Source of the DNA: Cyanidioschyzon merolae
Lineage: Eukaryota
Direction: 5' to 3' (one strand)
Assembly (NCBI GenBank): GCA_000091205.1
Contig: AP006495.2
Length of the DNA stretch: 64,000 nt
How positions within the stretch are numbered: the stretch's first letter is position 1; each line of letters opens with the position of its first letter. The notes below the pieces were generated by a model. That model was not told the origin of the DNA, ran no database searches, and saw nothing but the letters and a program-made list of their open reading frames with translations. Made by a program: the position numbers and the translations under genes. Shown here one piece after another: positions 10,450 to 53,970 of the stretch.

Positions 10450-11400
10450 TTACGGATGCATACGTAGTTTTATGATTATCGGTCGTTTTTCGGAGTCGCT
10501 CCTTTGACTCGTTGCCATCTGGATTTCGCTTTGTTATCGTACTGAAGATGATTCGCGACGCGCTCCAGCAAGAGTTCTCAAAATAACAGGTACCGTTATG
10601 CCGTGCATCAGTGCATGCCTCTAAGCTTCTTCTTTTCTTTACGTGGAGCATGCTCAAGTCACGCATTCTTCAAGTTTTCGATGTTCCTGTTTCAAGGCCG
10701 CTCGGGGCACAGCAATGCGCGCCGCTGATTCCAGGGCGAGAGAAACTTCACGTCGTCCGACTACGACTTGCTCACCAGCTCATGCGGAACCTTCACGGAA
10801 ATGTTGACTGTAGGGAATCCTTCCCGTTCGGAGGGAAAATCCTGCTTTATTTGTGGCCATCAGCGAGAGGCCGTTCGATACACATATGATGCTGCTCACA
10901 TCATTTGTATCCAGAGGCTCCCGTCTCGTCCGTTTGCATGCGAAAAGGTTTCGAGCTAGAACTGGAGCCATCGCAGCGACCGTATACTGTGAAGCGTGCG
11001 TCAGTGCGTGGCAAGAAGGGAGCGTAAACGGGTCAGGACCTGTCGACTTGTTCTCTAGTCTGGACATTCCTTCCGGTTCTTGGTTCATCATGGGCAACAT
11101 GGTGTTCCATGAACCCCCAGTCGAATGGAACAGCGTACGATTGCGCATCCAGACAGAACAGAGACCTTGCTGAACAGTTCGCGTACAGAAAATGCCTGCG
11201 ATCGTAGTTTTTACCCAGTTGGGCGCGGAAACGGACGAGCACATCCCTGGGGGGAGCCTCTGCTTCCAGTCAAGAGCAAGTACCAAGGGAAGAAGCCAGC
11301 GTGCATGCGCTACAAGGCAACCCTGGGAGCAGGAGAAAAAGGTTCAATAGACATCTTGAAACACCTGATCACAGTCAAAATGTGAACGCCGCGACAAGCG
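10450..11400 (+). repeat. Dispersed repeat family R1, copy a
   Basis: Conserved blocks are shared in the same order with 26480-27790, 38040-39340 and 52740-53970. They include ga(t/c)gattcgcgacgc, aagcttc...tttacg...atgctcaa(g/a)tcacgcat(t/a)cttcaag, cgccgctgg, tcgacttgttc, and catcatgg...ttccatgaa...gaatggaacagcgt.cg...tgcgcat. The 3' end of this copy is less clear. Confidence 0.6.
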
Positions 11401-11908
11401 TAACGATGTTGTATTCAAAGCAGGTGAGCATGAGAAGCGATTCGTAGATCGCATTCCCCACCTTTGCTCCAAATGCGTCGCTGACACCGGGAAGCCGAGT
11501 CATCGGGACTTGAACGCTGCCATCAACCTCCGTCGACTGCGGAAAACGGTACTCGAGGGAGATGCGTGACCAAAGTCTTTCAATCTGGAGATACGAGAAA
11601 AGAAAAGCAGGCAATCACACGGAAGGCCAGCAAACGCCACCGCTGATAAACCTGGGAGAAGACCAATATACTAGTATCCATGCCCGACATGGAATTCTCT
11701 ATTCGTTTTCCCCTACTATGGGTGTATGGCATTTCAAACACCCAAGCAAAGTGCATCCAGTGTACACAATCATCCGCCGCCGCCGCCACCGCCGCCGCTG
11801 CACCGCCGGCGCGATGGACAACCGCTGCCTTCATCGCGTGAATACTCCAACTGCTGAGATCTGTTCCTGAAGTTCCTTCTCAGCACTGCTTGTGAGCTAG
11901 CCAAGCTG

Positions 11909-12946
11909 ATGTTCGTTCTCGGTTTGCTGCACGCTGCGCGGCCTAGTCTTTCTTGGCAGAAACTTGAGCGTCGGCGACGTCTGCACTTGGGGCAGCGGAG
12001 ACCGCGCTCCAGTGGACGTGGTTGCGTGGTGGCGTTGCGGCCGCCACCGGGTGACCCCATCGCCAAGAAGTACGCCGAGCTGGACAGCGACCCCTACGGA
12101 CCCGCGCGTATTCGAAACGAGCCCCAGATGGAAAAGAATCAGTTTGGGATAGAGCAACCGGTGCTAAAACCGTTGGAGCAGTTTCAGGTCTCGATTTTTG
12201 GAGAGCTCCGTGAACCTGTCGAGGAGCAGGACTTTACATATCGCTGGGAGCGGGACAGCGACGAGGACTGGCCCGTCTGTCCGCGCGGACTTTACCCAGA
12301 AAACTACCCGCTTTCGGATGTGCTGAAGGCGGAGTTGGACATGCCAACTGTCGAGGAGTATGACTATGATGAGCGCGTGTACCATATCGTGGAGCTCGAG
12401 CCATCCATCCTCGATATGCTCCAGGAAGACGGCCTGTTGAGAGTTCGAGACAAGCGAGCGCCCAGCGACGCAACGGGTACGAAATCCAAGCGAGGTCAGC
12501 GCGGCATCAGAGCGCCGGTGGAGGGCACCGAACCCGCTCGGGCCTCGAAAGCTGGTCGACGTCGCCGGGAACGTGACGACAGCGAGGCGCTCTTTGACGA
12601 TGTAGAGGATGTCGCATTTGGAGACGATGTTTCGATCCATGAGCTACCGGACGTCGATCCCGACGAACCCACCTTGCTTGAAGACGAGTCTCTTGTGGAT
12701 GGTGATCTCGAAATCGATGACATGATCGACGAAGGCGATCTGGACGTGGATTCCGAGTATGATGACACTGCATTCGAGGACGATACAACGGACTACGACG
12801 CAGACGAGGTACTGGATGATGACAGCGATGACTATCGGTTGGATAGTTTGGACGAAGATGTTGATGTGGATTTTGACTATGACGGCGGGTTCGGTAGCCG
12901 TGCCACCGGACCAATCGGTCTCAGTGATGACTTTGACTATGATTAG
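11909..12946 (+). CDS. Hypothetical highly acidic protein with a D/E-rich low-complexity C-terminal half
   Basis: 345-codon ORF. The C-terminus is dominated by Asp/Glu runs (DDMIDEGDLDVDSEYDD...DEDVDVDFDYD). No recognisable catalytic motif. The start codon is uncertain. Confidence 0.4.
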   Translation: MFVLGLLHAARPSLSWQKLERRRRLHLGQRRPRSSGRGCVVALRPPPGDPIAKKYAELDSDPYGPARIRNEPQMEKNQFGIEQPVLKPLEQFQVSIFGELREPVEEQDFTYRWERDSDEDWPVCPRGLYPENYPLSDVLKAELDMPTVEEYDYDERVYHIVELEPSILDMLQEDGLLRVRDKRAPSDATGTKSKRGQRGIRAPVEGTEPARASKAGRRRRERDDSEALFDDVEDVAFGDDVSIHELPDVDPDEPTLLEDESLVDGDLEIDDMIDEGDLDVDSEYDDTAFEDDTTDYDADEVLDDDSDDYRLDSLDEDVDVDFDYDGGFGSRATGPIGLSDDFDYD

Positions 12947-14824
12947 CGGGGTAGGGCGATTTCGATGGGTACATAGACCTGTTCTTTTTTTTGTTTGCAT
13001 GCGAGCAGCCTGACGGATCAAGTGGAAACCGGTTGATGACGCGGCGATCATCATGCGCATCGGTGAGCATCTCCTTGGAACGAATAACGCGCGAGTACGC
13101 ATCAACGATTGTGCAGCGATGACACGCCCAGTCGATGAGTGCCTGGTACGGTCGTGCGCCTGTCGGAGTATGCGAATGTGTGCTCATGTTCGCAAAGCGG
13201 AGCATTGGAGTTATTCGGATTGGGGCAAATATCATAGACGTTGACGGGATCTTGACGAGTTTTGAAACGCGAAGCTCAGTGGGTCGCTTCTGAGCGACCT
13301 GTCATGATTCGAAACGCTGTTCATAAACTTGAGAATATGGATATATGTTTTCGTAGACGATCTGCACGGTACACGTCCGCCACGTCCGTCGGATTGTCAC
13401 CGAGCTCGCTGGCCTGAAATGCGGCCGAGAAGCGCCAGCCGGGGCTCCTGAGCACAACGTGCTGGGCTCGCAAGAGACCGCCATCGATAAGTCTTGCAAG
13501 GGTTCCCTTTCCAGAGCGAGTAGCCGGTTGCTGGTACTCCCAGCGAGGTTTTCGGCGTTCGATATTCGAGAGTCCTGTCGTGGTTTCCGAACACTGGACA
13601 AAAAGCATACTTGTCTCTGTCATGGTTATCCTGGATCGCAGAGCGCCTGCGCCCAGTTGCGACTGGAAGCCGTGCGCCAGGGATGCTGCTTCGCCACCGT
13701 GATTCCGTCTACGCCCGAGCATTCAGCGCACGATCGGATTGTGTACTTGCCGCTGCTGGAAGCGTACGAGTTTCATGTCGATGCATGATGCGTCCTCAAG
13801 TCGCCTGTCATGGAAATCAATGGAGTATGGACGTCCGTCACGCTTCCGAGGAATCTCATCCAATGAGCGGTGCCTGTTCGACGAGAGATGCATCGGTCTT
13901 GGTTCGCATTCGCCACAATCCCATGCGAACCAGAAATCCACCACTGTGCATCGCACGGACATCGAGCGCGAGGGATGAGTCGGAGGTGGTCACGAAGGAG
14001 GAAATGGTGCGCCCAGCGCTTGCTAGAAGCGTGTCGGGAACACAACCACTGCATGCTGCCACTGCCATTGAAACCGATGATGACTCGGTACTCGTGATTG
14101 TTTCAGCGGGCGAAACACTCACTGGCAGAGATCATGTGAATCCTGAGTGAGCGCGTGGCACCGTGACCCGATGCTCGGGGTAGCGAACGGATGTCGCACA
14201 GCTACCCGAACGTGACGCCGAGTGGAAGCCAGGCGGAACAGCTGCAGCGCCTCTGTATGACGCGCGTTCCGAGAGGTCTGCGGAGAGAGATGCCCACCAC
14301 TGACACTGAAGCCCGTCGCATAGATCGTACGTTTCGCCCCGGAACCCGATCTAGCTACCGGGAGACCATGTGGATGCGTCATGTATGGACGGTGGAGTTT
14401 ACCACGCGCTCGTTCGGAATCGTATACACAGGCGATGCACGTTCGCTGCATCGATCGGACGCACAGGAAGACGCAGACACCGTCATGTTTGCACGGGACG
14501 ATTCTGGACAATTACGAACAAGAATGCTTTCCGCGTGGCGTGCGCTTGTTGGGCGCATGGGACTTTTCTGAACAAATAGGTTCAAAGATTGCATTCCAGT
14601 TGGAACGCCCCTGAAGAGGCGATCGGTGCGGGGCGCGCATGCTACACGCCCGGTTGTGTTCCGATACGAGCGGCATTATCGCAGGCTGCGCAGTCGTACG
14701 CTTATACGTAACGACACGGTACCAGGAGCGTACTGGTCGCACTGAAAACAGCGACCATACAAACGTGCAAGACGCGCCGAACTCTAGCTCCTATCGGGCA
14801 GAGGTCGCTAACGGCTATCGCATA

Positions 14825-15736: not shown

Positions 15737-16876
15737 GAGGCGGCCGCGCAACCTCACGCACCAGGCAACTGTGCTGTGCACCGCCACATGCTCTGGCATG
15801 CTTTTTAATGTGCGTGCTCGTAGATAAAAGGCAACCATGGCAATAGTTAGGAGGAATCATTGAATCGGTCGTTGAACGAGCGATTTTGGTGAAATTTCGG
15901 TTCGTTTCGAGCGAAACTATGATCGATGGCCATCATGTGATCGCAGCAGGCGATCCAGGCGTTCCTTGGAGCACATCGACTGAAGTCGTGCCCGCTCACA
16001 TGCGCCTAGCGATGAAGCATCGAATGACGAAGCTGGACGTACGTGCGTTGAAGAGGCCAGTCTCGGGAACAGCAGACCATGCTCTGGTGACAGCGTCAAA
16101 AGGCACGACGAGATACACCTTGAAAAGGCCGCTTGTGAGCATTCCGTATCCATGCTCTCGCACCAGCGTAAACAATCACTACGAAATGGATGGAGAAACG
16201 CCGTGCTCCGCGCTTGCTTCAGATACTCACCTGAAGAGCGATTGCCCATGCACGAGGTATTCATCGCGTTTGAGTGCATGACCATGATCGGGTGTATGTT
16301 CATACACCGACGTGCAGACGCTTCCCAGTGGTTCTCGAACGGCGACCTACTACTCGTTTCAACTTCTACTTGTGCAGTTCGAGCCTACGAGGTCGGTCCA
16401 CAAAGTTGGTTCATGACAGGCTTGGAGGTCTCCTCTGCGGTATCGCACATTTCCTGATATTGACTGCGGCGTTGACGTCCCCGTTCACGAACTCCGTACG
16501 TTTCCTGCCGCTGGATGAACGCGCCAGTGCAAGGAGTTCTCGAACTCGAGCACTCTTTGCCGTTTGATGCGCTTCAGCTCTTCGTACTTTTCTATCCCCT
16601 GAGCGATAGACTGGCCCGTTTCCATCCCGACTTTCTGAAGTGTACATCGCAGCTCATGGTGCACGTATGTCTTTCGGAACGCATCTATGGGGACCGTGTC
16701 AAAACGCTGTGCGCACTGCTCGTGCGCTAGTGTCGACGGAGCCGGTGTGCTCCCTTTCTGAGGCACCCAGCGCCATGCTCCGTATGCTATTAGGAGCATT
16801 TGACTCTTGTCTTCCTTAAAGACGCTCAACTGATTGAAGAAGTTCACGAATGCATGCTTCTTCCTGCAGCACAGCC

Positions 16877-17910
16877 TCATTCGCTGACGAGCCCGCCGGG
16901 CTTTGTGTACAGTTTCCACAGCTCCTCGAAATGAGCAGCTTGAGTTGCCAGGAACTCTAGAAAGGCTCGAAAGCTCGCGCATCGGCTCGTCACATTGCTG
17001 AACTCCTTCTTATGGACGTCGAGCTCAAGGCTGATCTCCTCTATGTTGCCGTGAACGGCGCTGGAATCGATTGGCTCAAAGTAGGACGTGATGTTGCACA
17101 GCAGCACGACGTTGAAGCGCTTCCCCAGTAGGAAAGCCTTCTGTCTCTCCGAATCTTCATTTTCTTCCGCATCCAGCTGAATCTCCGCCATGCGTTCGAG
17201 TTATCGGTCCGAAAACACGAAATACCGCAAGATGAGGGAATAACATCTTTTTTCATCTCTGATATCTTTTCTGCTGGATTCGCCAGCCCCAAGACCGCAC
17301 GATGCTCTTGAATAGCCGCACGGATGACGGAAGCCTCATTCATGCTCCTGCGTGATGTCTTCTCGTCGACAGATTCGATCTCCTGTTCATGCAGGCGATC
17401 GTTCATGATGCCATTGATAATCGCTTATTTTCCTCTGCGAGAGATGCCTGGGTAGAGCGCAAATATGGAGCGTTTCATGAAACGCTCCAGGTTCATGGTC
17501 ATATGGTTCTTCAGATTCGTGAGGTACTTGATTGCATCGTAAGTGTGCATATCCGAGTCATTCCTGTGTCGAGCACCGTGAAGCGGTATTCGGCGTGATT
17601 TTCCTGTAGGGTATGTACTCGATCGTTTACGCTCGACGTTTGCCCGGTGCCAAGCATCAAGTGCCGGATAATGGCCTTGTTGAAAAATTCTTCCAGAGCC
17701 TCTAATGTTTTGTTGTCCGCTACGTCGTGGCACGTCTCCTTCACCAAATGCATTATTCCTGAAGAAGCGTTACGAACACTGCTGGAGTACGACGCGACAA
17801 GGTGTCTGGTGGCCTCTCGCAACTTTTGCTTGAAGGGATCCTTGATACCGCGTCGAAGAAAAGCTGTCAGTACAATCTCGTCGTACTGTCGTCTTTCTTG
17901 CAGCATTTGA
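16877..17910 (-). pseudogene. Eroded ORF X, copy B (inverted paralog of 2780-3930), split over four frames
   Basis: ORFs 17511-17906, 17425-17733, 17041-17406 and 16877-17191 are colinear with copy A. Examples are LQERRQYDE...[46 protein letters not shown] and NEDSERQKAFLLGKRFNVV. Confidence 0.45.
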
Positions 17911-18299
17911 CGTCGGGCCTCCGCCCTTTGCTTCTTCGTCTTCTCCTTTTACTCTGAACTCGGCACTGTTTTTCGTTTTTCTCCGGCAACCGGAGATACT
18001 GGTCCTCCAGAATCCTCCGCCTCTATACCCATACGTTTATTTTTTATGTTTCAAAAAGAATTCAATTTGAAAGCATCTGCCATGAACCAAGAAACCTCAC
18101 TGGAATACAGTAATGTGAAGGTTGAAACTCAACTGAGGTCAAACACCGTATTTGGCTATGACTGTAACATCGTTACAGCACGTACGTTAGAGCGGCACGC
18201 TAATCATCAGGATCACGTTTCTCTTGAACGGCGAGAGGCGCGTCGTGTCTCCTGCCTTCCTGATCCCGAGATGCGCATATCGACCGCGCTATAGAAAAA

Positions 18300-18840
18300 G
18301 GAAAGCAACGAACCGCAAACTAGCAATGAGATAGCATTGTTGTCATCGTCTATGGTGCAAATTCAAAGGGAGAAAAGCTTTCCTCATTGCCGAGAGTTTA
18401 CCTTTTAGGTGGAAGGTCCTGCGAGCCAGACGAGTGTGCCCGGTTTGCGCTCCGTGCGACTCTGCAGTGGCGGGTGCTGTGGTGACATCTGAGCGGCTCG
18501 CCCGCAACGCTGTTTATTCTGGGATAAGCGGCTGTTAGGCTGCGTCCGCGGGCGTCACCCTGGCCGTGGTAGACTCTCAGAATATCGCTTCGCGCTGGCG
18601 CAGGCAGTTCGTCTATCAACACAACTTTCTGGTTCCCAGAATGACAATATGTCCCGACCCAGTATCAGGTGTAGCATTCCCGGAGCCGACGTCCTTAGTG
18701 GTGTGGAAAAGCCGTTCATTCTCTATGATGCATCCGCACCAGCGGTACAGGTGCTATGACGGGTGCTCAAATCAGACACTCAGTGCACAATAGAACATAA
18801 GAAACGACCCGCACATCCGAAATGAAGTATGGATAATGGA
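18300..18840 (-). repeat. Dispersed repeat R2, copy 2 (inverted relative to copy 1)
   Basis: The reverse complement aligns block-by-block with 2110-2650 and 58660-59200. Examples are cagaataa.cagcgttgcgggcgagc.gctcag, ccactgcagagtcgcacg(g/a)agcgcaaac and cctaaaaggtaaactctcg. Confidence 0.6.
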
Positions 18841-19135
18841 ACCTGATGGTAGGGTGCATCATGATGGCTGCTGCCCAGAAAGCCAATACCCATTTCGCAA
18901 TCTGGGATCGCTGACCAGTGTAAACTTTTTTCATCAAAAATAAAATTCGAAATCGCCGCTTGCCGCTCGCGCCACTGAGGTAGGTGACCTCGCGCGTGCG
19001 ACGTTCCGTAGAGCGCCAGGGAGCCGTACACGCCGCAACTTGCCGGCGAGTGTGCGCTTGAAACGCTGACTCAAGATCTCTAGACACGAACTCAATAGTT
19101 CCACGACTTGCAGCTTGCCGTGACTGTGGTGCGGC

Positions 19136-24406: not shown

Positions 24407-24690
24407 AGCGAAAAGCATCACAGGCGCTTCCAGCAACCGCAGGCTATCCATAGGCTAGATCAGCGTCCATGCGAGCATGCCGTGTCACGAAATACCGTCA
24501 CGAGTAATCAGCTGCACAAGGTATCGATGCTTCATCCGTAGACAATACAGAATGCGAAAAGCATCACAGGCGCTTCCAGCAACCACAGGCTATCCATAGG
24601 CTAGATCAGCGTCCATGCGAGCATGCCGTGTCACGAAATACCGTCATGAGTAATCAGCTGCACAAGGTATCGATGCTTCATCCGTAGACG
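24407..24690. repeat. Tandem duplication, 2 x about 147 bp
   Basis: gcgaaaagcatcacaggcgcttccagcaacc(g/a)caggctatccataggctagatcagcgtccatgcgagcatgccgtgtcacgaaataccgtca(c/t)gagtaatcagctgcacaaggtatcgatgcttcatccgtagac occurs twice in a row. Confidence 0.85.
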
Positions 24691-24969
24691 ATAAAAAATG
24701 TATCACCAATGGCGGCCGATGCACTTTGCAGCAGAGGCCGCTGGACGGGGATGGCGACGCGCCCGGCCCCGCGAATCGTCGTAATTCGAGCACGTGTTAG
24801 AGGCCTGGCAGCACCGATGCAACGCAACGCACTATGAGCTTTGCATGAACCGCAACTGGAACGTTGGGTGAGCTAGGTGCCCGCGACTCGACGCGACGCT
24901 GCCAGACGGTAGCTGGGTCGCACCGGCTGATGCAGGAGGCAGCGCAGCGTTGTACCTTCAAGCACCGCT

Positions 24970-26247: not shown

Positions 26248-26479
26248 GCCCGTGACTGGTAAGCGATGCTCGTTATTCCTTGCGGGGGCTTGTTTGCGTT
26301 TGCGCTCCAGGCCTGAGTTGCTGCTGCTGGTGCTGGTGCTGAATGCTTGATGGAGACCGCACCAGGCCAGCGGTTGCCGCGACTCAAGCGAATCGCACAG
26401 GATGCCGGTAGAGGCAACAACAGACGAGCGACTCGGGCATTCGACATGCACTGATCTCTACCCATGTAAAAAATGAAAT

Positions 26480-27790
26480 GGATTACTGAACTGCTATATT
26501 GATTCCTGCCTTTCGATGGATTTCCGAACGTTTTCTCGATGTACAGACTCTGTATTCGAAGTCCAGCTGCTAGGGTTTATGGATTCATACGCAGTTTTTC
26601 GATTTTCGATCGTTGTTTCGCCGCGGATGCATCGACACATTGCTGCTGGAATTCGTTATCCTACCGGAATGATGATGATTCATGATGCTTTCAAACTACG
26701 GCACGTAAAATTACGAACTCTTATATCCTAATCAAATGTACACGTCTCCGCGCTCTTCATTTCCTAACGTTTGGCATGCATGAATCACGCATTCTGGCAG
26801 TTTTCAACGTTTCTGTTACAATGCAGCTCGTGGGCGCCTCAGTTCTCGCCGCTGGAGTGATGACGAATAAAAAACTTGACGTCGTCCGTTGACGACTTGT
26901 TCCGGAGCCCTTGCCGAAAATCCATCGAACTTTTCACGTCTAGTAATCGATTCCTTCTCAAGGACAAATCAGCCTTGCTTTGCGGATTTCAATGAAAAAA
27001 TACTCTCCATCAGCATCATAACTCTCAGAGGATAAGCTCATAGAGGAACGCGTTTGATTTATTTGCACGGAAAGGGGTCTTAGAGTCGGACTTGGGCCAT
27101 CGCACCGATCGCTTCCCCCGGTATGTGCGTCGCCGCCTCGCACGCAGGAGACCTATATCAATCGAAACTGCTCGACTTGTTCACCAGTGTGTGTTTTCAG
27201 TCCAGGACTTGCCTCATCATCCACGATATCGCATTCCATAAATCCCCTTGGGAATGGAACAGCGTTCGTCTGTGCATGCAGCAGACATTGGGCTCGTTGA
27301 GGCCATTGCCCAGAAGAAGCCCGTGATCCTGAGTTCCGGTACCGGGCATTGAATCGGAAGATGATCTCGAGGGGTGACATGTGTACCCGCCAACGACAGA
27401 TGCCGAGCGATGATGCGAGCCTTCGCGCGCTACCGTTCAGTCTGCTGAGAATGAGGAAGTGTGATGGATATATGCGAACACCTGACCGCTATCAAGTATC
27501 GCCGCTGTACATGGCGCACCGAGACTGAATACGAAGAAGATAAAGTTGAGAAGCGGTGCATAGATCGCAACCATCGTCTTTACATGAAATGCATCGACAA
27601 CCGTCAAAAGCAGCGACATCGGGACCTAAACGTTGCTATCAACATCCTTCGACTGCTGGCTACGAAGCCCGCGGGAGAGATGAGGCAGGCATATTTGGAG
27701 CCACAGATGAGAGACAGAAAACCCAAGTGACCGGAGGAAGCGCTCGCAAAAGCTGGTGTTGATGATGCCACAAAAAGACCCCAACCTCCT
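26480..27790 (+). repeat. Dispersed repeat family R1, copy b
   Basis: Carries all R1 blocks, including the distal ones: atcaacatccttcgactgctgg, gagagacagaaaa and ctggtgttgatgatgcc. Confidence 0.6.
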
Positions 27791-29812
27791 ATGCATACCC
27801 AAGAGTCGACTTTGTGGAAACGTTCCACTTTATGGTGAAATCGGTGTATGCATGCGCGGATTCTGTTCTCGGTGCCATGTTGTTTTATTCTTTTCTGCTT
27901 TGTCGTACTGCTCAGGGCACAGACTCGAGACGCAGTTCATTGGACACGGAGCCGGGACTTGTATTTATTCTTAGAGTCGTCAAGCTGCGCAAACAAGCCC
28001 ACTGCCGGCGACGGCGCGAAGCAATGTGCCACGAGACCACCACGACCAGCAAGACACCTAGACGCAGATGAATCGCTCCCAGGCCTCGGGTAAACTGCGT
28101 ACCGGTAGAGCTGCTCAAGTCGCGCCTCTGCTGAGGTGCGCGGAGCTCTCGCCCGACGGACTCATCCGGCGTCGGTGATCTCACGCTTTGGAGGTAATCT
28201 TTCGAATATACCGAAACCTTTTCCTACTTTCAACGCTATCCATAGAATGGGAAACAACTTTTATCGAGTTGCCAGATAGAAATACATTTTCGATTCGACT
28301 CTTCTGTATGATGCTGGCGAGGGATGGGATCGACATCTCAGGGCGCTGCGCGTGCGCGATCTCTGCAGGTCTACATTCTCTACTGTCAAGACATGTTCAT
28401 GCGTATCCATCTAGCAGATGAATATATCGTTTCTCAAGTTGGAATCTTTTGATGGTGTCGCGTATCGACGGAGTGCCGTTGAACGCATTTGAACGTGGCG
28501 AGTGCCTTGTGCATGTGCCTTGATTCGCGCTCGCATATGAGGGAGGCGTACAAGCCGCATTTACAGACCCACCGCCCGGGGTGCTGCTGGGCACTGTGGG
28601 AGTCAGAGCGCAGCTGAGAAACCTTCGCGTCCGAAAGCGTTCATGGCATGTACCTAGGCATATGCAGTGCACCGACGCGTGTCGCTTTGGCACAGAGCAT
28701 CCCTGCGTTGACATATGTATCGTCGAGATGAGGTTTCGGAGCTGCAATCTGCTCAATCTCCTGCTCTACCTGAGCATAAAAACGCTAATCCCGACGAAAG
28801 AACGCCAAGAAGACTTGCGTGTTCCGTTGTTCTTTCCAGAGAGGCGGGCAGGTGTGTCGCGCTGTACGGCTGCACTCGCTCACAGCGTACCCAATAGATA
28901 ACAAGTACCGATAACCTGCTGGACACGTTTGTTCAAACCTGACGGTCTCTTGCGCCGACGATATCTGAGCTGCGATGCCATGGACGCGGATTCAGCAGTG
29001 TCGCACTGAAAATTCTTGACCATAGTCGGTTGCTGTCGAGGCCTCGGTGTCGCTCACCGTCAGAGAGGCGACACTGCAAAAACGCCACGGGAGACGGCGC
29101 AGGCGTTGTGCCAGAGCTGCAGAAAGCGCCTGGGTCGATGGCTTGCCATGTCGTCGCAAAGTCGGTATGGCGCTAGGCACGCACAGCATAGGAATCGCTC
29201 ATGTCTAGTTCAGAACAATGCGCGGGATTCGCCTCCAAGCATGGCTCGTCATTGTTCCCGTGTCTGCTCAGGCCCGCGATATCCCGCTCAAGCTGGGTGG
29301 ATTCTGCGACGCAACCCGAGAATTCATCAGGATGATTGCTCCAATGCTATGGATCGTCAGACGACCCAGCGTGCGCCCTTGGTAGCGAACCGATACGCTG
29401 GGGTTGGCGGTCCTCGAGGACAGGGCAGCTGCTCATTACCGTCGAGTTTATCACTGCACCGAACGGGAATCGACCAGGGCGTAGTGTATTCCCCGAGAAG
29501 AGCAGCGCTTGCCTACCTGTTTAAGCGAGTTTGTGAATGTATCTGTCTAGCTGTCTGCCTGTTATTGTCGCCCCGCTGTAGCAAGTACATACTGGTCACT
29601 AATCCGTCTGCTAGGATGGGACACATCGCTGGTGATAGTCAGGGAGCAGGCATACCTAGTTCAGCTTGCATGGCCTGATCACTGTGACATTCACACAGCG
29701 CATTCCGGGTTCGTGCACTATGTCTGGACTGGCATCAGCATCGCTGTGAAATGCAGCGGACAGAAGCGGTACCGCAGAACGCTAAGCATCGTCATTTCTT
29801 TAAAATCATTTC

Positions 29813-36082: not shown

Positions 36083-36440
36083 GCATGCGACATCCATGAC
36101 GATGCAGGCTATGGCATGTGTCCCATGTATGGTGGGTCTTATAGTCGGCGTCCACAAAAAGATAGCCGATTCCCTGCCGATGATACATCCGCTGTGTAGG
36201 AGGGTGTCTCCATGACGATGCAGGCTATGGCATGTGTCCCATGTATGGTGGGTCTTGTAGTCGGCGTCCACAAAAAGATAGCCGATTCCCTGCCGATGAT
36301 ACATCCGCTGTGTAGGAGGGTGTCTCCATGACGATGCAGGCTATGGCATGTGTCCCATGTATGGTGGGTCTTGTAGTCGGCGTCCACAAAAAGATAGCCG
36401 ATTCCCTGCCGATGATACATCCGCTGTGTAGGAGGGTGTC
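36083..36440. repeat. Tandem repeat, about 3 x 113-129 bp, in a convergent 3' intergenic region
   Basis: The unit gacgatgcaggctatggcatgtgtcccatgtatggtgggtctt(a/g)tagtcggcgtccacaaaaagatagccgattccctgccgatgatacatccgctgtgtaggagggtgtctccat is repeated. It produces three near-identical phantom minus-strand ORFs (MYHRQGIGYLFVDADYKTHHTWDTCHSLHRHG...). Confidence 0.85.
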
Positions 36441-37683: not shown

Positions 37684-37782
37684 CCACCGCGTCTAATGTT
37701 CTTCTCGAGGAAGCTTCGCGGAGGCCAACACGAAGCTTCAAATCGGGTGTCCGTCCACGCAGTCCAAAACAAAAGCGAGGTG

Positions 37783-37870
37783 TGGACGTGAGGGGAATCG
37801 AACCCCTGGCCTTGACAATGCTAATGTCACGTCGGGTACTGCAGCAGTCATACCACTTGACGACACGCCC
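37783..37870 (-). tRNA. tRNA-Ala (anticodon AGC) carrying a roughly 16-nt intervening sequence at a non-canonical position (D-arm/anticodon-stem junction)
   Basis: Reverse complement: GGGCGTG TC GTCA AGTGGTA TGAC [TGCTGCAGTACCCGAC] G TGACA TTAGCAT TGTCA AGGCC AGGGG TTCGATT CCCCT CACGTCC A. The acceptor stem has the alanine identity pair G3.U70. The D- and T-arms are canonical, and the anticodon loop TTAGCAT is as in eukaryotic tRNA-Ala(AGC). No cloverleaf is possible without removing the 16 nt. No encoded CCA. Confidence 0.6.
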
Positions 37871-38039
37871 GGCAGAGACACCCGCCTGCATTAGACTAGA
37901 TCGCAAAATTAGTATATAAATGGATCTTCATCGAAATGATCCTGGGTGCGAACGCCGTCCGGGGCTGCGTCTCAACCAGAGACGTGCTGGCGTCCTCGTT
38001 CCATGGAGCGCGAACTAGACCCGAGTCAGATTGAAATGG

Positions 38040-39340
38040 GGTACTGAACAGGAAGTTCTTTTCCCCGCTTCACCAAATTTTTCGAATTTTACAGATGCTA
38101 AGCTTCGACATTCGACGTCCAGCGATATGGGATTTCAGATTCATGCGTAAGTTTCGGACTCGTGGGCGCGTTTTCGGGGTGCCTTCTTCGACGATTTGAC
38201 GCTGGAATTCTTTATGTCACCGGAATCAGGACGATTCGCGACGCCCTCGAGGAAGCGTTCGTAAAATGAACTATACGACTGCTCAATTCGTGCCTAAAGC
38301 CTCCAAGCTTCCCATTTCTTTACGACTAGCATGCTCCAATTAAGCATTCTTCAGGTTTTCGATCTTTCTGTTCCGAGGCAACTCGTGTGGGCAGGCATTT
38401 CGCGCCGCTGGAGTCATGGCGTGGAAGCGTAGTCGATGTCGACCCTTGACGAGTTGTTCACATGCTTATGCCGAAAGTTTGTCGAAATCTTCACGTCAAA
38501 TAATAGGTTTTGACTGAATGACAAAATCCTCCTCGAATCGTGGCCATGGACGACTCGCGATTCGGCAGCAACCTGATGCATCTCAGGCGTATATGCACGA
38601 TGAGGCTCTAGTCTCGCACGTTTGCGTGCAAAAGGGTCTTGGACCTGGATATGATCCATTGCGGCGATCGATGTTGGTGGGATGCGCGTCACCGCTTCCC
38701 ACGAGGGAATCGTAAACGGATCGAAAATTCTCGACTTGTTCTCCAACCTGGTTTTTCCCGCACACGTTTCATCATGGATAAAATCGCGCTCCACAAATCC
38801 GATACTGAATGGAGCAGCGTGCGCTTGCGCGTGCTGCCTTCAGTGTACTCGCAGAGGCAATCGTCCAGACGATGCCCGTAATCATAGTGGACGGCACCTG
38901 GCGTGGAAGCGGAGAGAGCAATCACAGGGAGCGCTCAGTGTCCGTCAAGGACATGTATCGGGCGATGAAGCATGCGATGACGCACAAGAAGGCGACACCA
39001 GGACGAGATGATGCGTTGAATGTACATGGACATCTAACGTTAGAGAAGGGTCACCGCTGCAGAGGGCGTCCCGAGACTGCAAAAAAAGAATGAGAAAATG
39101 GCAAGCGAAGCGTTGATCGCGACTTTCGCCTGTGCATGAACTGCATGAACGGCAGCGGGAAGCAGCAACAATGAGGCTTGAGCGCTGTCATTAGCATCCT
39201 TCGACTGCTGACAGCAGCGCTGGAGAGACAGGCGGAACCGGCGTATTGCAAACCGGAGATAAGAGATAGAAAAGTTAGCTATTGCTGACAAAGCCCGTAA
39301 ACGCTGTCTTTGATGACCATGGAAAGAGACCCGATCTTGA
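38040..39340 (+). repeat. Dispersed repeat family R1, copy c
   Basis: Carries the R1 blocks: gacgattcgcgacgccctc, atgctccaattaagcattcttcaggttttcgat, cgccgctggag, tcgacttgttc, catcatggataaaatcgcgctccacaaatccgatactgaatggagcagcgtgcg, cattagcatccttcgactgctg and ttgatgaccatgg. Confidence 0.6.
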
Positions 39341-39798
39341 GCGTGCCTCCACGAGTTCGGCGAGTCATCCCGCACCACTCTATCCTGGCACGGATATCGT
39401 CTGGATCCGAAGCTCGACAGGGTCGAGGCTTCCGCTTGGTCATATATTTAGAGGCAGTTGCTGAAGTCGCAAAATATATCCGTGCGCGTACTCCCGGCGA
39501 GGCTCGAACGCGCAGCGTGTTCACCACGCACTCGCGACATCGAGCTTACTGAGCACCAAGTCTGCTTATAAGACTCGCGCTCTAACCAGCTGGGGTAGTC
39601 GACGGCGGCGTTGCCAGCCGATAGCTACAGGAGTGCGTCGCAAACGGACAAGCGTCGCAGAACAGCAGCCGACGCCAGTACGGAAAAAAGTCCCATAAAT
39701 TGATATATAAAGAGAAGAGTGCGTCATACGGCAGGCTGCCATGACGGTGCGCGTATCGGGCGTGGTGCCCGCAGTGCCTGCGGTTCGCAGCAGCAACC

Positions 39799-40311
39799 AT
39801 GAGCGGGTATCGACCCGCTGCGTTCGATCTCCCTCGAGCGCTCCTACGCGAAGCAAAGAACCAAATTGTATCGGTAGAGACCAAAAATGGAATGGAGTAC
39901 CGGGGGCGCCTGGACAACGTGAGCTCGCGGATGAACCTGGTGCTCAGCGCGGTGACGGTATTGAACGCGACTGGCGAGCGCACCCAAAAAAATCGTGTTC
40001 TCGTCCGTGGTGACAGTATCGTGCTTGTAGTGCTCCCGGAAGCACTAGAAGACGCACCACAGCTGGATGTCCTATTACAGGTAAAGCAGGCCCGGAAGGC
40101 GGCGATGCACGTGAACAACACTGACCGCAAGTCACGTGGAGCGCGTCGTTCCGAGGCAGACGTACACGAGCGTTCAGGTGCCAGCACGCTGCCACTACCC
40201 CAGAGCGAGTCGCAGCCGCAACTCAAGCGAACTCGAGTTTTCTTGAGTGGTAATGCGGAGACCGTTCAGCGAACCAAAGAAGGAGGCGACTCGAACCGGC
40301 GGAACGTGTGA
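39799..40311 (+). CDS. SMD3: Sm core protein, SmD3-like
   Basis: The Sm fold segment IVSVETKNGMEYRGRLDNVSSRMNLVLSAVTV...RVLVRGDSIVLVVLPE parallels SmD3 ([30 protein letters not shown]...IRGSKIRFLILPD). A basic, RG-poor tail follows. Confidence 0.7.
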   Translation: MSGYRPAAFDLPRALLREAKNQIVSVETKNGMEYRGRLDNVSSRMNLVLSAVTVLNATGERTQKNRVLVRGDSIVLVVLPEALEDAPQLDVLLQVKQARKAAMHVNNTDRKSRGARRSEADVHERSGASTLPLPQSESQPQLKRTRVFLSGNAETVQRTKEGGDSNRRNV

Positions 40312-43142: not shown

Positions 43143-43789
43143 AGAGAGACACGTTCGCCTCTGCGTCTTTTCGAGGCGACCACTCTACCGTATCACCACT
43201 GTAACAAGCTGCTGCGCCCCGGGTGCTTGGTCCGTGCGTCCCCAGACGAAACCGTATTCGCTTCGAGCAAATCACGGGCGTTTCGCGTCGTCGATCAAAA
43301 ACACCACCAGTCATCACGTAAGTGTCGCTGATGCGACGACGCTCGAGCGCTGCGGAGATTGCGCCGGCGCCGGCGCCTCGCCCGCTTTTAGGGATAGCAT
43401 CAACATGCTCGAGCCGGCGTCCTCTGGCGAAGCGGCAACGCCGCTTTCTTTCCGAGTTGCGACTTCAGCGGCGCTAGAGGCGCTACTGCAGCGGACGTTC
43501 ACGACGTGCACTCGGCGCACAGTCGAACGAGAAACATAAACGGTACCCCCGAGGGAAACTATCGGTCGTGGAACTCTGAGGAAGAGCGTACAAGGATGGA
43601 AACTTCACTGCGCGCTGAGAACAAGCGTGCAATCGGGGATCGTTGGTCTGTGTAACTGCTATGTCAAGCAGAAGAAATCGTCGACACGGAGCAGCGTTCA
43701 GCAGCACACGCGAGCGGATGCATGAAGCGTGGCTCTTTGCCATGCTGGCGATGATGGCAGATGTATCAGCAAATCGCAGTGCACGCACA

Positions 43790-44215
43790 TCCGAATACAA
43801 TCATGCATAAACGTGTGAATTCTAGTATACATTCTCGTAAGAATACAATCATGCATAAACATGTGAATTCTAGGATACATTCTCGTACGAATACGATCAT
43901 GCATAAACGTGTGAATTCTAGTATACATTCTCGTAAGAATACGATCATCCATAAACGTGTGAATTCTAGTATACATTCTCGTACGAATACAATCATGCAT
44001 AAACGTGTGAATTCTAGTATACATTCTTGTACGAATACAATCATGCATAAACGTGTGAATTCTAGTATACATTCTCGTACGAATACGATCATGCATAAAC
44101 ATGTGAATTCGAGCATACATTCTCGTAAGAATATAATCATCCATAAACGTGTGAATTCGAGCATACATTCTCGTAAGAATATAATCATCCATAAACGTGT
44201 GAATTCGAGCATTCG
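43790..44215. repeat. 48-bp minisatellite, about 9 units, in a divergent promoter region
   Basis: The unit atgcataaacgtgtgaattctagtatacattctcgtaagaatacaatc is repeated. The period of 48 (16 codons) keeps every frame open, which explains the stacked ORFs 43698-44330(-), 43761-44363(+) and 43766-44242(-). Confidence 0.9.
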
Positions 44216-46143: not shown

Positions 46144-48651
46144 GTAAATCGGAGCGCATGTCTCCTTTTTTCTCCCGTGGATGCGATTTGGGTGCAGGGT
46201 AAGTTACATCTATACGCGTGATAGTTGCGAAGAGGTAATCTTCATGTGGCAGGCAGCTCCTCATAGACAACCACCTTTGGCGAGCGGCAAACCAAGCTAG
46301 AATTGCACATGATGCATTCAGTCAAGCTGCCTGGAGCAGAGCACCTCGTGGTGTCAGCCAAACGCACAGGACGGTTGGTGATTGTCCCATCGGCAATCAC
46401 AGCGGTGCATGCTTGACTTGTGCGTTGCTCGTGTGCGCTTGGTCGCTCGCCGACATGCTGCATCCTGCACTCCTCAATGTAATCCGAAAGCGAAAAAGTA
46501 AGGCCTGTGAAAGTCATGTGTTTTTCCACAAAACGTTCCATGAACTGCTCTAGCAGCTGTTCGAACGCGGAAGGTTCAAAAGTCTCGGGTCCGTTGGAGG
46601 CGAGACGAACGCACGCCCTTGTTTCCAACTCCGCAACTGGTCGCCTTCTCATTGCCCCTTTTTCATGCACGGCAAACGCACCAGACGCGGTTTTGGCTCT
46701 GGTGCGGTTCTCAGGGAATCTCCGCAAGTAATAAACCGCAATACCACGGTGCGCGATGGTTGTGGAAACACCTGCACGGCCCGGAGTCCCCAATTCCAGG
46801 AGCCCAGCTTCGCACACACTGCTGACGGATGGGAGCACGTCACCGCGGTCGGTGTTGAGGTTGCACCGCTGTCTCGCTCTGGCGATTTACAGCGGAAAGA
46901 AGCGACCTTGCCACGGATACACTGGGCCGGGCCGCTGCGAGCCGGGCATCTGTCTCTAGCGTAACTACGGGCATTGTCGCCTAGGCGCTACAGGTGAGCA
47001 ATGACCGGCGAAAACAACGATACGACATGCCTGTGTAGTTTTCGCAACCCGAATAACATCATTCGCGAAATGCTCGGGGGAATGTACCTGTTCAAAGAGA
47101 CGAGCGCAACCGTTTCACCTCAATGTGCATGCTCCCTCCGAATCGTTTCGCTGTGCAGGCACCCCATCCTCGCACAGGGACCTGACGCTATCGCATGCAT
47201 AGCCAGAGCATCGCAAGAGCGAACTTGTATGTATGCGGGAAAATCTGGCTTGTGGCCGATGTCCTCTGAACTGATGGTGCGGCATGATGAACCCTTGCCC
47301 GGATGCCGATAACAATTGCGCAATCAGGAATCCATCTGTTCGAGTCATGGATGCTACACCCTCACGCAAGGATTGCACGGATGGCGATACCGCGTGGCAA
47401 TACCGCATGGATAGTGGAATTAGAAGGTGCGTACGTGGCACGATCGCTGCTTTTCCAACCTGTGCAATTCGAAAGGAGCAATCCGTGATCATCGTCACCA
47501 AACAGCATGCAAGAAGAAGTATGGGTTACGGAACTTGGAAATAGAACCTGGGGCATGCTGCATGCTTCGCTGCGCGCCGAAATCAAGCGCCCAGTCAGGT
47601 ACACTGGCCTTTGGGTCAACGTTTCACCAAATAGGAAAAAGTGCAACAAAGCACCCGTGCGTTCCTGCAAGGGATCGCGCAGCACCCGCACTGCAGCGCA
47701 GCGATCCCCCCCGCCGGCGTCATCACCGTCGCTGCGGCATGCGCGCCGCCTCGACGCGGACGCGACGGTGATGCACATGACACATCGAGAGTGGAGCGCT
47801 GCGAAAGTTGCAACACATATCACAACCTCGGGAGCGCTCTTGAACACTGTTACCGCTGCCTTTGAAGTATGTTTGTCACGTCTTTCTTCGGATGCACTAG
47901 CAGTTTACTGGTCGACGGCGGGAAAAGTGCTTGTGCCCAATGCCCGTCGAGCCTGCAAACGCTTCGAATGTCGAAGCACCCGATCCCGAAGGCAACGAAA
48001 AAGCACGTGAAACGGCGGCCGCGAAAGTCCAGCCCAAGTGACAGAAACCGGACGCCTCCAAAGTACGCACTATATGACGTAGTGCCGCCTGAAGAGTATA
48101 CGATAGTTGCGGGTGGAGGGAGCATCCCACCAGAGTTCTTAGCGAAAATCGGTTCACGCAGCAAACGGCGACAAGAGTCTCGAAGCGAGAGGGACAGAAG
48201 CGCTGACGACGCTGATGACGAGACAATGGCGACCGCAACTGAACTGCTTCGTGCGGATGTTGACTAGTTGAAACGCCACGACGTCGAGTGTAGTCGGACG
48301 GTTTCTGCGTATCGAAAGACTTGTCGAGGTCGTAACCAGCTCGGTGTTACACGAAACAAGGCGGTATACATGCAGACTGACCTGTTTACAAGGAAAGCGA
48401 CACTGCAATGGTGAACGTGATGATTCCCTACAAGATGTTGCGTTCAGTCATGGTGCCTTACGGTGTGCGCTGTTCCCGCGCCTGTAGTGCCATGGGGGTA
48501 AACATAGCTTTTGCGCAGAAAGATTCGCGTCATTATGCCAGGAACACCAGCAGTGCTTTCGTTTTGCGAGTAAAACCACGCCGATGAGCCCGTGTCTATG
48601 TAAAACTAGGATACGCACGGTCTACAACGTGTATCACGACGCATAGCGCCG

Positions 48652-51448: not shown

Positions 51449-51773
51449 TGCACTGGAGATGCCTATCAGTTGGCGATGCGGTCGCAAAAGAGCGACGCAG
51501 CTTAAACAATGTGCACTGGAGATGCCTATCAGTAGGCGATGCGGTCGCAAAAGAGCGACGCAGCTTAAACAATGTGCACTGGAGATGCCTATCAGTTGGC
51601 GATGCGGTCGCAAAAGAGCGACGCAGCTTAAACAATGTGCACTGGAGATGCCTATCAGTTGGCGATGCGGTCGCAAAAGAGCGACGCAGCTTAAACAATG
51701 TGCACTGGAGATGCCTATCAGTAGGCGATGCGGTCGCAAAAGAGTGACGCAGCTTAAACAATGTGCATTGGGG
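51449..51773. repeat. 63-bp minisatellite, about 5 units
   Basis: The unit tgcactggagatgcctatcagt(t/a)ggcgatgcggtcgcaaaagagcgacgcagcttaaacaatg is repeated. The period of 63 (21 codons) produces the phantom ORFs 51430-51747(+), 51414-51761(-) and 51263-51823(-). Confidence 0.9.
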
Positions 51774-52739
51774 ACAGCTGCTGATGCGAATTCGTTCTGG
51801 AGCTCGCGATGCCGAGTGCTCATGGGTACAGAATCTCGGGTCTTGTCCTATGACTGCTCATCGCCGTACAAATGCTTCTGATCCCGGATCATTTACCATG
51901 CGCATGACGATCGTCAAGGCCGGTAGTTTGAGTGCTCCAAAGCTCCGCGGAGCACATGGACATCTTCCCCAGAGCGCTAACGCATGTGGCACGCGGCCTG
52001 AGTCTGTTCGTGTTGTTGACATCGATCACAGCTGTTTTGCTCGGAGCATGCTCGTTCACGCTAGGTTTGCGAATGCATCGAGTCGGGAAAGGCGACGACT
52101 GGTGCAAATTGCTTGGCGTGCTCCCTGCTTGCCGGATTCTAGCCTACGTCAACGGATGAGCGCGCACGACCCTGAGCCGCTCAGTGAGTATGAAAAGCGA
52201 ATGGCATCCTTTCTAGGTCATTTTCTCGTTCCAAAGGTATATATGGATGCATGCAGAACTTGGGCCAGTTCGTCTCGTGAAATGTACCATCGACTTGGCG
52301 CTCCTGTTCTGAGCCGGTCGCCCGATGCGATCACGAAAGCATTTGCGTTTTGGCCCTGCAAATGATGGTGCACTCGTTCGATAGGCAGCGGTCTGAAGCA
52401 AGTGCCTGTCCGTGCGCACAGGCTGACACAGACCCGGTTCATATACGTAAGCCGTCCCGAGCGCCCAACCCGGTCTCACAACGGCGGAGGCGTGTAGCGT
52501 CGAGCAGTCACTGCGGTTTAAAAGCTGTGCGTTCAAGTCAGAGGCGTCTTCGAGCACCAGGGCAGAGGGCGCGCTGGAGAGGCACTTAGCAGTTGTGATC
52601 GATGTATCGTGAGCGTATGACAAGGAAGCCAAAGCCTTCCTGCGGAAAACCCAAGAAGGATATTTTCCTATGATCACCAGCACTCATACAGTGGAGACAA
52701 CTCGCTCCAAAATACTTTTCAGAGGTGTTACACCAGTGA

Positions 52740-53970
52740 CAGACTAGAGCTGAACATTGGACTGCTCGATCTGTTCCTGTCTTTGTATGTTTCCGAATTT
52801 TCTATTGACCTACGGCCATGAGATTCGAGGCGCAGCAATAAGAGCTCACGGATCCGTAGGATGATTTTGGATTTTGGGACGTGCTTTCGGAGCGGCTCCG
52901 ATGACTCTGCTGCTGGAATTAGAAGCTTCAACGGAATCAAAATGATTCGCCACGCCCTCAAAGAAGAGTTCTAAAAATACTCGATACCATCATTCTTTTC
53001 AAATGTAAAAGCTTCCAAGCTTCTCCTTTCCTTACGTGTGGTATGCTCAAATCACGCATACTTCAAGCTGGCGATCTTTCTGTTTCATGCAAACACGTTG
53101 GCGCAGCAGTTGCGCAAATGTATCGACGATAAATGAATCGATACATCATCCCTTGACGAATTCTCCACGAGGTCACGCCAAAAATCCTCCGAACTTGCCA
53201 CGCCATATCTATCAGAAGATATACTTCCGCAGGCCTCCGTCTCATCTGTTTGCATGGAAAAGGGCACTGAACACAGACTTCAGTCATCGCGGCGATCGGT
53301 TTCAGCGGGGACTGCGTCACCGCTTCGTACGAAGGTCGCGGGGTCGGATCGCAAACTCTCGACAGCTTCTCCAGCCTTGATCTAGCCTCTGGTATTTCTC
53401 TCAATATGAAGAACACCACGTTCCAGGAAGCCTCTATTCGACAGAGCAACTTGCTGTTCCATATGCAGCAGACAGGTTACTCGCCGAGCGGGATTCCCCA
53501 CATGAGGTACTTGATCGCAGGGTACGGCACCGGGAACGGAAACGGAGGATGGCATCGAGTTGCACCATCTGTACCCATAAAGTGCCTGTACCGCGCGATG
53601 GAGCGAGCCTTTGCGTGCCGAAGAGCGGCGCTCGGAGGAAGTGTTTTGGCAGACGTAGAGGAACCCCTGACCACATTCATGAATCACCGATGAGAACGTC
53701 GCACTCAATGGTGTGTACAGTCAAGATGAACATGGCAAGCGAAGTGTAGATCACAACCGACCTCTTTGAAAAAAAATCCGTTGACAACGGGATGAAGCCG
53801 CGAAATCGACTCTGTAACGATGATATCAACATCTCTCAGCTGCTGTTATAGGAGCTGTATGTCAAGTAGAAACAGGTGTATTGAGGGCCGGAGATCAGAG
53901 AGAGGCAGAGAAAGCAGTCGCAGAAAAATCCGCCAAAGTCTGGTGTTGATATCAGTGCAAAAAACCCGTT
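52740..53970 (+). repeat. Dispersed repeat family R1, copy d
   Basis: Carries the R1 blocks: aatgattcgccacgccctc, atgctcaaatcacgcatacttcaag, gatatcaacatctctcagctgctg, gagagaggcagagaaagcag and tctggtgttgatatcagtgc. Confidence 0.6.

Follow-up and report, generated by a model that had tools for sequence, protein, structure and literature searches.

R1, a repeat family of Cyanidioschyzon merolae best filed as a decayed, internally deleted Tc1/mariner-Fanzor1 element

Transposons that combine a Mariner-like transposase with a Fanzor1 protein, and that have terminal inverted repeats (TIRs) and TA target site duplications (TSDs), are known from oomycetes and algal viruses (Bao and Jurka, 2013; PMC3627910). 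In PUl-1, PUl-4, and PGv-1, TIRs of ~24-33 bp flanked by TA TSDs enclose two genes read from the same strand, the first for a DDE transposase and the second for Fanzor1 (Bao and Jurka, 2013; PMC3627910). For Cyanidioschyzon merolae, a red alga, the only Fanzor1 family listed by the same authors is CMe-1, which has no TIRs, and the genomic copies of CMe-1A are ~80% identical to their consensus (PMC3627910). Here we analyze R1, a repeat family of C. merolae, in a stretch of 64,000 nucleotides of contig AP006495.2 (GenBank assembly GCA_000091205.1), hereafter the window. We class R1 as a decayed and internally deleted Tc1/mariner-Fanzor1 element that is new or, at the least, has not been published, with an architecture known since 2013. 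Like PUl-1, PUl-4, and PGv-1, it has TA TSDs, TIRs, and transposase and Fanzor1 sequences in that order on one strand. In contrast with them, it is a 1.38-kb deletion derivative without the end of the transposase and ~80% of Fanzor1, all its copies are decayed, and its host is a red alga.

The genome of C. merolae is considered poor in transposons. Nozaki et al. (2007; PMC1955436) reported 0.7% transposons and only eight class II elements, which weakly resemble bacterial transposases. They also described a 3.2-kb repeat present in 253 copies, which makes up ~5% of the genome and carries a truncated open reading frame (ORF) weakly related to the protein WSV486 of white spot syndrome virus (WSSV). 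Since Bao and Jurka list Fanzor1 in WSSV, this repeat is most likely CMe-1A. The P-MITE database reports no MITEs (miniature inverted-repeat transposable elements) in C. merolae (PMC3964958). A description of R1 was not found in the searchable literature, in a search that did not extend to Repbase or Dfam.

A preliminary description of the window, made from the letters alone, had noticed four R1 copies on the plus strand, here called c1 to c4. A repeat search of the window recovers them as 4-copy families close to where they had been placed, with spacings of 16126, 11555, and 14712. The four copies align over ~1.38-1.4 kb (MAFFT, alignment A1) and find one another in pairwise blastn searches with E values of 1e-25 to 8e-32. 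They prove longer than first thought and have sharp ends, c1 for instance extending to 11724 and not to ~11400. A nucleotide profile built from c1-c4 detects a fifth copy, c5, that had been missed (nhmmer, E 6.8e-110 and 5.3e-08). This copy lies on the minus strand, so that the uniform orientation that had made R1 attractive does not hold. The copies and their remnants are located as follows.

10333-11724, plus strand: R1 copy c1, whole; TA at 10331-10332 and 11725-11726; TIRs 10333-10359 and 11700-11724 (nhmmer and end mapping); 74.5% identity to the 11-copy consensus
10412-11128, plus strand: transposase remnant of c1, with helix-turn-helix (HTH), first catalytic D ('IDET') at 10853-10876 and second D ('MDN..H') at 11087-11128; truncated beyond the second D
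11122-11671, plus strand: C-terminal third of Fanzor1 in c1 (tblastn with the consensus pseudo-protein, Pfam Cas12f1-like_TNB, Fanzor1 core profile); RuvC-II E and first CxxC at 11350-11392, second CxxC at 11459-11476, 'HRDLNAAINL' at 11501-11542; interrupted by frameshifts and stops
26461-27846, plus strand: R1 copy c2, whole; TA at 26459-26460 and 27847-27848; TIRs 26461-26484 and 27822-27846
26539-27257, plus strand: transposase remnant of c2
27251-27788, plus strand: Fanzor remnant of c2, a single reading frame with five in-frame stops
38018-39394, plus strand: R1 copy c3, whole; TA at 38016-38017 and 39395-39396; TIRs 38018-38042 and ~39372-39394
38095-38812, plus strand: transposase remnant of c3
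38806-39338, plus strand: Fanzor remnant of c3, a single frame with three stops
52731-54033, plus strand: R1 copy c4, whole; TA at 52729-52730 and 54034-54035; TIRs 52731-52755 and ~54007-54033
52808-53444, plus strand: transposase remnant of c4, in which a deletion of ~80 nt takes out the first-D block
53438-53973, plus strand: Fanzor remnant of c4
61211-62281, minus strand: R1 copy c5; 5' TIR ~62250-62273, 3' TIR 61211-61235 (nhmmer, alignment A2)
62191-61469, minus strand: transposase remnant of c5; Fanzor core deleted (consensus ~1010-1400)

The ends of the element are well defined. When the 5' ends and the reverse-complemented 3' ends of the five copies are aligned together (alignment A5), a single TIR of ~25 bp emerges, TA followed by CACCCGTGTCAGAATAAAATGGAAC, and the motif CACCCGTGTCAGAATAAAATGGAAC is present at both ends of the 11-copy consensus introduced below. 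TA stands directly outside the TIRs at all eight ends of c1-c4. Such a combination of TIRs and TA duplications is the mark of a Tc1/mariner insertion, and the origin of each copy is thereby explained as an independent insertion. An old non-autonomous transposon family had been one of three candidates of the preliminary description, and this candidate is borne out by the termini and by the two protein remnants; the clear termini that it had associated with an ordinary MITE-like element are indeed present. No insertion polymorphism is seen, c1-c4 occupying the same sites, with no empty site, in all strain-level metagenome contigs that cover them, as fits ancient, fixed, and inactive copies.

These contigs come from hot springs and are ~99% identical to the window across tens of kb. 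The c3 orthologue, for example, is ~99% identical in L001, L002, L009-L011, and L017. A search of the metagenome contigs with an alignment of R1 pseudo-proteins (A4) yields 29 loci, in which six other, distinct copies are found besides the orthologues of c1-c4. The five copies of the window and these six from the metagenomes, 11 distinct copies in all, were aligned in 12 rows, and a consensus of 1382 bp was derived from them. Every individual copy carries stops or frameshifts, at places that differ from copy to copy; in the consensus the stops vanish, leaving an open frame of ~310 codons with a Fanzor C-terminus at its end. It remains true that the copies share no intact ORF, but the consensus restores ORFs. 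Likewise, the earlier remark that R1 is no obvious protein gene is right for single copies but overlooks the ancestry, which leads to a DDE transposase and a Fanzor1 protein lying in different frames of the consensus.

The 3' half of a consensus of the four plus-strand copies, which contains a few stops, reads '...MPVIVVYGTGRGNGG..PSVPVKGMYRAMKRAF...EHLTTVKCHRC...RLCMKC...RHRDLNAAINILRLL' and is, judged from these motifs, the hallmark C-terminus of a TnpB/Fanzor protein. Pfam Cas12f1-like_TNB (gathering score 26.3) matches this 4-copy consensus with 31.9 bits and the 11-copy consensus with 36.1 bits (E 7e-9). A Fanzor1 core profile hidden Markov model (HMM), built from the proteins CMe-1, CVu-1, CRe-1, CRe-4, CRe-5, and VCa-1 of Bao and Jurka, matches the R1 consensus with 45.9 bits over profile positions 128-261. 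With BLASTP, the Fanzor consensus of R1 reaches CRe-4 (E 2e-8) and CMe-1 (E 4e-6); a protein homologue search with the 4-copy Fanzor consensus found nothing. The 11-copy consensus reads 'WEHLTTVKCHRC...RLCMKC...NRDLNAAINI'. The motif set thus comprises VVxYGxG, E..TT..CxxC, CxxC, and RDLNAAINI, and the remnant carries [TS][TS]-x-x-[C4 zinc finger]-x(5,50)-RD, the motif of the family (Bao and Jurka, 2013).

The Fanzor remnant is C-terminal only. The RuvC-I aspartate and the N-terminal WED/REC region are absent from R1, similarity beginning at the equivalent of residue 720 of the 898 residues of an intact Fanzor1 presented below; upstream of this point the sequence is transposase and not Fanzor. 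No copy has an intact Fanzor ORF, all being interrupted by stops or frameshifts. Fanzor is reportedly an RNA-guided nuclease, a role irrelevant to the R1 copies because RuvC-I is absent. Some earlier candidates were given up. The idea that the whole 1.3 kb is one decayed TnpB/Fanzor gene was disproved by the 11-copy consensus. Strings such as 'ILQVFDLSV' or those resembling 'GLDPG', once taken for a RuvC-I remnant, are off-frame or belong to the HTH ('FDLSVSRQLVGAAIR' is the HTH of the transposase), and 'EWNSVRL', once taken for the Fanzor W-motif, sits after the second catalytic Asp of the transposase. An alignment of stop-free fragments of the window (MAFFT, A3) was discarded, having stacked non-homologous halves.

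In the upstream half, the consensus frame contains 'MYSLDIRSAAIRAYGFIRS..LGRVFGVAPSTLCRWN', then 'FDLSVSRQLVGAAIRAAELTTKKARRRP', 'LFVAIDETAFDSSMIPLTGYAPRGSRL', and 'VIAAIASSGECV..EGSVNGSKFLDLFSSLDFPSGTCFIMDNIAFHESSVEW'. Pfam DDE_3 matches it over profile positions 3-100 of 146 with 36.9 bits (E 4e-9, against a gathering score of 28.6), HTH_Tnp_Tc3_2 with E 1e-4, and the NCBIfam IS630 transposase model NF033545 with 59.1 bits (E 4.8e-16, profile positions 20-238 of 299). The half is also collinear with the Mariner transposase of PUl-1 over residues 83-224 of 308, at 22% identity. As in IS630/Tc1-mariner transposases, an N-terminal HTH is followed by the 'DE(T/S)' and 'DN..H' blocks in the right order and with the right spacing; in contrast with them, the third catalytic residue is absent, the DDE_3 and IS630 matches both ending early, and the score lies below the NCBIfam full-length cutoff (59 vs. 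100 bits), because the sequence is truncated and reconstructed. By these marks the half reads unmistakably as an IS630/Tc1-mariner transposase broken off past its second catalytic Asp. Having two of the three catalytic blocks, R1 is a member of the Tc1/mariner-IS630 (ITm) superfamily by descent but not autonomous. The block of the second catalytic Asp, 'MDNIAFHESSVEW', directly precedes 'EWNSVRL' in the ancestral transposase frame. This string, earlier regarded as a phantom peptide, is thus a piece of the transposase, and 'AVPF..GFME', its supposed counterpart on the other strand, is the antisense reading of the same place. An HMM made from natural decayed transposase fragments alone did not reach the PUl-1 transposase, and PDB sequence searches with either half of R1 gave nothing useful.

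An exhaustive HMMER search with a profile of natural ORFs in the R1 transposase frame (A6) returned 327 cluster representatives at E<=1e-3. Among the best 151 of these, 109 prove to be short fragments with an identity of 45% or more to the transposase consensus of R1. They are ORFs called on further decayed R1 copies and indicate a high copy number. Nine of the 109 cross into the Fanzor part, at the same junction as in R1, and the transposase-Fanzor junction is the same in all loci and ORF fragments that span it. A few of the matches are intact relatives of the R1 transposase (286-324 aa) and have a complete DDE_3 domain and the 'PPYSPxxNPIEN' block, which is absent from R1; three of them (P0121, P0049, and P0055) lie on contigs of ~1 kb. 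Another intact relative, P0066 (L037:8001-8930), follows in frame on the N-terminal half of a ResIII/DEAD helicase, and no adjacent Fanzor gene is called on its 30-kb contig. This fusion resembles a helicase gene with an insertion of the mariner type, possibly in a large DNA virus.

The closest intact two-gene element found is on contig L038 (378-4395). It has the layout predicted for the parent of R1: within ~4.0 kb, TA, a 29-bp TIR, a transposase of 313 aa, a Fanzor1 of 898 aa, a second TIR, and TA. The TIRs (378-406 and 4367-4395) begin with CACCGGTG and CAGGGATG and are bracketed by TA. The transposase, P0144 (L038/L039; ENA ERZ27313174 and ERZ27229601), combines HTH and DDE_3, and the Fanzor ORF starts 160 nt downstream. 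Its 898-aa product is a typical Fanzor1, with 'LAIDPG' (RuvC-I), 'VWEHNTTAKCFGC', and 'LNRDGNAAKNI'. The R1 consensus is 30% identical to this transposase in its transposase part (E 7e-32, residues 11-250 of 313) and 35% identical to this Fanzor1 in its Fanzor part (E 1e-21, residues 720-869 of 898). The L038 element has intact ORFs, belongs to another organism, and is too divergent from R1 to be its actual parent. With both ORFs intact, it may itself be active; the GC content of its contig is 65%.

Compared with the other Fanzor1 family of its host, R1 resembles CMe-1A and its 5' derivative TE-N2_CMe in containing Fanzor1 remnants and in age (~80% identity to the consensus for CMe-1A, 70-77% for R1). 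CMe-1A, however, has no TIRs, no recognized transposase, and no determinable TSD, whereas R1 has TIRs, TA TSDs, and a DDE_3 remnant. Within the window there is no nucleotide similarity between the two, since blastn with CMe-1A misses the R1 copies and the R1 nhmmer profile misses CMe-1A; their Fanzor parts are only 25% identical. In spite of its TIRs and TSDs, R1 also falls outside the definition of a MITE (usually < ~800 bp, no coding remnants), being 1.38 kb long and made up almost entirely of the remnants of two genes. The term internal-deletion non-autonomous element suits it better.

The copies are old. Each is 70-77% identical to the consensus, and they form a star phylogeny. Among c1-c4, all six pairwise identities lie between 0.59 and 0.62, a uniformity that argues for a star rather than for serial duplication. 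Across all copies the range is 0.53-0.61, with a mean of 0.586 within the window and 0.575 between the window and the other copies. Since the window copies are no closer to each other than to copies elsewhere, they are independent insertions of one ancient burst and not local duplications. The differences between copies show no three-base codon periodicity; hence, there has been no coding constraint since the copies diverged. Conservation along the element, which the preliminary description had called patchy, is clustered barely more than by chance (z 1.7-2.2 against column shuffles).

Between strains, as sampled by the strain-level metagenome contigs, single-nucleotide polymorphism (SNP) density in R1 is 0.7-2.3 times that of the flanks and is the higher of the two in 15 of 16 comparisons. 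In SNPs per kb, R1 and flanks have 18-20 and 8-14 for c2, ~8 and 4.6-7.4 for c3, 8-11 and 7-8 for c4, and 3.6-6.5 and 3.9-5.2 for c1. A SNP-free stretch of 700 bp in c3 (38100-38798) was considered as a sign of constraint and set aside, as it is not replicated in c1, c2, or c4. The R1 copies look like neutral relics, and a present function is probably absent.

The termini with their TA, the two protein remnants with their break points, the star phylogeny, the lack of constraint, and an intact element with the parental layout can be read directly from the sequences. On this basis we consider it highly probable that R1 is a dead, non-autonomous family of Tc1/mariner-Fanzor1 DNA transposons derived by internal deletion. 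The progenitor would have been an element of ~4 kb with two genes, in the order TA, TIR, DDE transposase, Fanzor1 (a TnpB-like nuclease), TIR, and TA. A single internal deletion of ~2.6 kb, from just past the second catalytic Asp to four-fifths of the way through Fanzor1, would have taken the last quarter of the transposase (third catalytic residue included), the intervening spacer, and, together with RuvC-I, the first ~80% of Fanzor1, and would have left the TIRs in place. Internal deletions that keep both TIRs, produced by abortive gap repair, are the usual origin of non-autonomous cut-and-paste elements. In the case of R1, the deletion probably preceded amplification, because every copy examined has the same junction. 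The 1.38-kb derivative would then have been mobilized in trans by a related transposase, inserted at intergenic TA dinucleotides in a single ancient burst, and each copy would have decayed neutrally to ~70-77% identity with the founder.

Several points weigh against this history. The C. merolae-like sequence searched yielded no autonomous R1 element in which an intact transposase is combined with matching TIRs, and for this reason the source of the transposase is inferred. Both Pfam identifications depend on consensus sequences built in this analysis; among individual copies and metagenomic ORF fragments no relevant Pfam match exceeds the gathering score, and there is only a weak TNB match in c1. 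The same circumstance accounts for R1 having been overlooked, since a domain match is given by the multi-copy consensus but not by single copies. The exact place of the deletion junction is blurred: where the transposase match ends and the Fanzor match starts, the two overlap by a few nt in different frames. The copy c5 has a degenerate 5' TIR and, at its 3' TIR, TC in place of a clean TA. Copy number, orientation, and spacing beyond the window were sampled through metagenome contigs and not genome-wide. Finally, the five window copies are spaced as evenly as only ~2% of random 5-point placements, a post hoc result taken up below.

The fusion of transposase and Fanzor sequences could in principle be the normal state, R1 being complete as it stands, either a native compact element or a family of host genes that have frameshifts or introns. 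All copies seen do share one architecture and no longer version of R1 was found. On the other hand, the DDE_3 match ends at position 100 of 146 and the IS630 match at 238 of 299, short of the third catalytic residue, which is retained in intact relatives; the Fanzor part has no RuvC-I, since it begins at a point equivalent to residue 720 of 898; the two parts are in different frames; and the positions of stops and frameshifts differ in each copy. We regard a native form as very improbable.

The arrangement of the copies, which the preliminary description had singled out for attention, could be taken as a sign of function. When c5 is counted, gaps of 16.1, 11.6, 14.7, and 8.5 kb separate the copies (coefficient of variation 0.23). 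The claim of even spacing stands to some degree, but the test is post hoc, concerns five points, and ignores that insertions survive only in intergenic DNA. The 4:1 split between strands is not significant (two-sided probability ~0.38). Elsewhere, on metagenome contigs L021-L023 (~1-4780), two R1 copies lie inverted and 2.6 kb apart, which shows that the family follows no rule of spacing or orientation. We attribute the evenness, without proof, to chance combined with intergenic-only survival. The long intergenic spacers in which the copies sit are long because each holds a 1.4-kb insertion. It could also be imagined that the host has taken over relics of R1, for instance as places where silencing of the H3K27me3 type nucleates or as boundary or spacer modules. 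Such a takeover would explain a spacing more even than ~98% of random placements; we give it very little credence.

R1 could also be a multi-copy structured non-coding RNA (ncRNA) gene conserved as RNA, such as a relic or active guide of the omega-RNA kind for Fanzor. Fanzor and TnpB elements are said to encode a guide RNA near their 3' end, and the 3' 245 nt of the consensus fold slightly better than shuffled sequences (z -1.76). This value is unremarkable, being equalled by 10 of 200 shuffles. Rfam 15 covariance models at gathering thresholds match no part of R1, a tRNA-Tyr gene (37783-37870) being their sole match in the window. SNP density in R1 is at least that of its flanks, the copies are 53-61% identical and form a star, and the consensus restores protein ORFs and not helices. 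The ncRNA candidate of the preliminary description is therefore scarcely tenable. Its remaining candidate, a host cis-element such as a replication origin, chromatin boundary, or silencer nucleation site with functional spacing of 8-16 kb and common orientation, can draw on the evenness of the gaps and on the four of five copies on one strand, but it is just as hard to believe given the inversion of c5, the inverted pair 2.6 kb apart, a post hoc statistic from five points, the absence of constraint between strains, window copies that are no more alike than window and non-window copies, and TIRs with TA duplications that account for the copies as independent insertions.

As a standard fossil DNA transposon, R1 has little weight for biology at large and is of modest value for specialists. 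Next to CMe-1A, it is the second lineage of Fanzor1 in C. merolae, this one with TIRs, and it extends the association of mariner transposases with Fanzor1 to red algae. Its consensus and TIR can be used to mask and annotate the family. R1 alone may add roughly a hundred copies or more to an "almost transposon-free" genome, which we find more likely than a takeover by the host. If so, much of the 'empty' intergenic DNA of C. merolae would be unrecognized transposon debris.

The window itself is intron-poor eukaryotic DNA with 55% GC and single-exon genes on both strands, in a host genome with a gene density of ~1 per 3.5 kb. Its genes include a desaturase-cytochrome b5 fusion, a DEAH helicase, citrate synthase, an LrgB/PLGG1-like protein, Dcp1, and a DAO-type oxidoreductase. 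The published CMe-1A consensus (3169 bp) matches the window at six places (blastn), with 66-81% identity. These matches and the tRNA gene are the following.

2121-4417, plus strand: CMe-1A relic, 81% identical to the published consensus
16306-18935, minus strand: CMe-1A relic, 75-80% identical to the published consensus
27897-28279, plus strand: smaller CMe-1A fragment (blastn with the CMe-1A consensus)
43408-43666, minus strand: smaller CMe-1A fragment (same search)
47276-47335, minus strand: smaller CMe-1A fragment (same search)
58599-59155, plus strand: TE-N2_CMe-like piece, matching the 5' 581 bp of the CMe-1A consensus
37782-37870, minus strand: tRNA-Tyr(GTA), 88-89 nt, presumably with an intron; 148 bp from the 5' TIR of c3

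R1 and CMe-1A relics together occupy ~20% of the 64-kb window, which adds to the evidence that '0.7% transposons, no MITEs' understates the transposon history of C. merolae. The 3' end of c2 and a CMe-1A/TE-N2 fragment are 50 bp apart (27846-27897), so that one intergenic spacer holds two unrelated transposon relics. Another such juxtaposition is seen in the metagenomic ORF P0124, where a CMe-1 Fanzor C-terminus runs straight into an R1 transposase remnant.

The window also contains tandem repeats. A 48-bp unit is repeated 8.6 times at 43793-44206, in an array that either overlaps the start of the LrgB-like gene or lies just upstream of it, and this is by far the most SNP-dense stretch between strains (~38/kb, against 2-9/kb elsewhere). 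Near-perfect intergenic arrays (96-99% identity) are found at 24408-24700 (146 bp, two units), 36093-36440 (116 bp, three units), and 51449-51771 (63 bp, five units), and the register of the 116-bp array differs between strain contigs. Finally, an ORF at 39799-40311, called as an LSM-domain gene in contig L001, has 8 SNPs in 513 bp between strains (15.6/kb), several-fold above neighboring genes.

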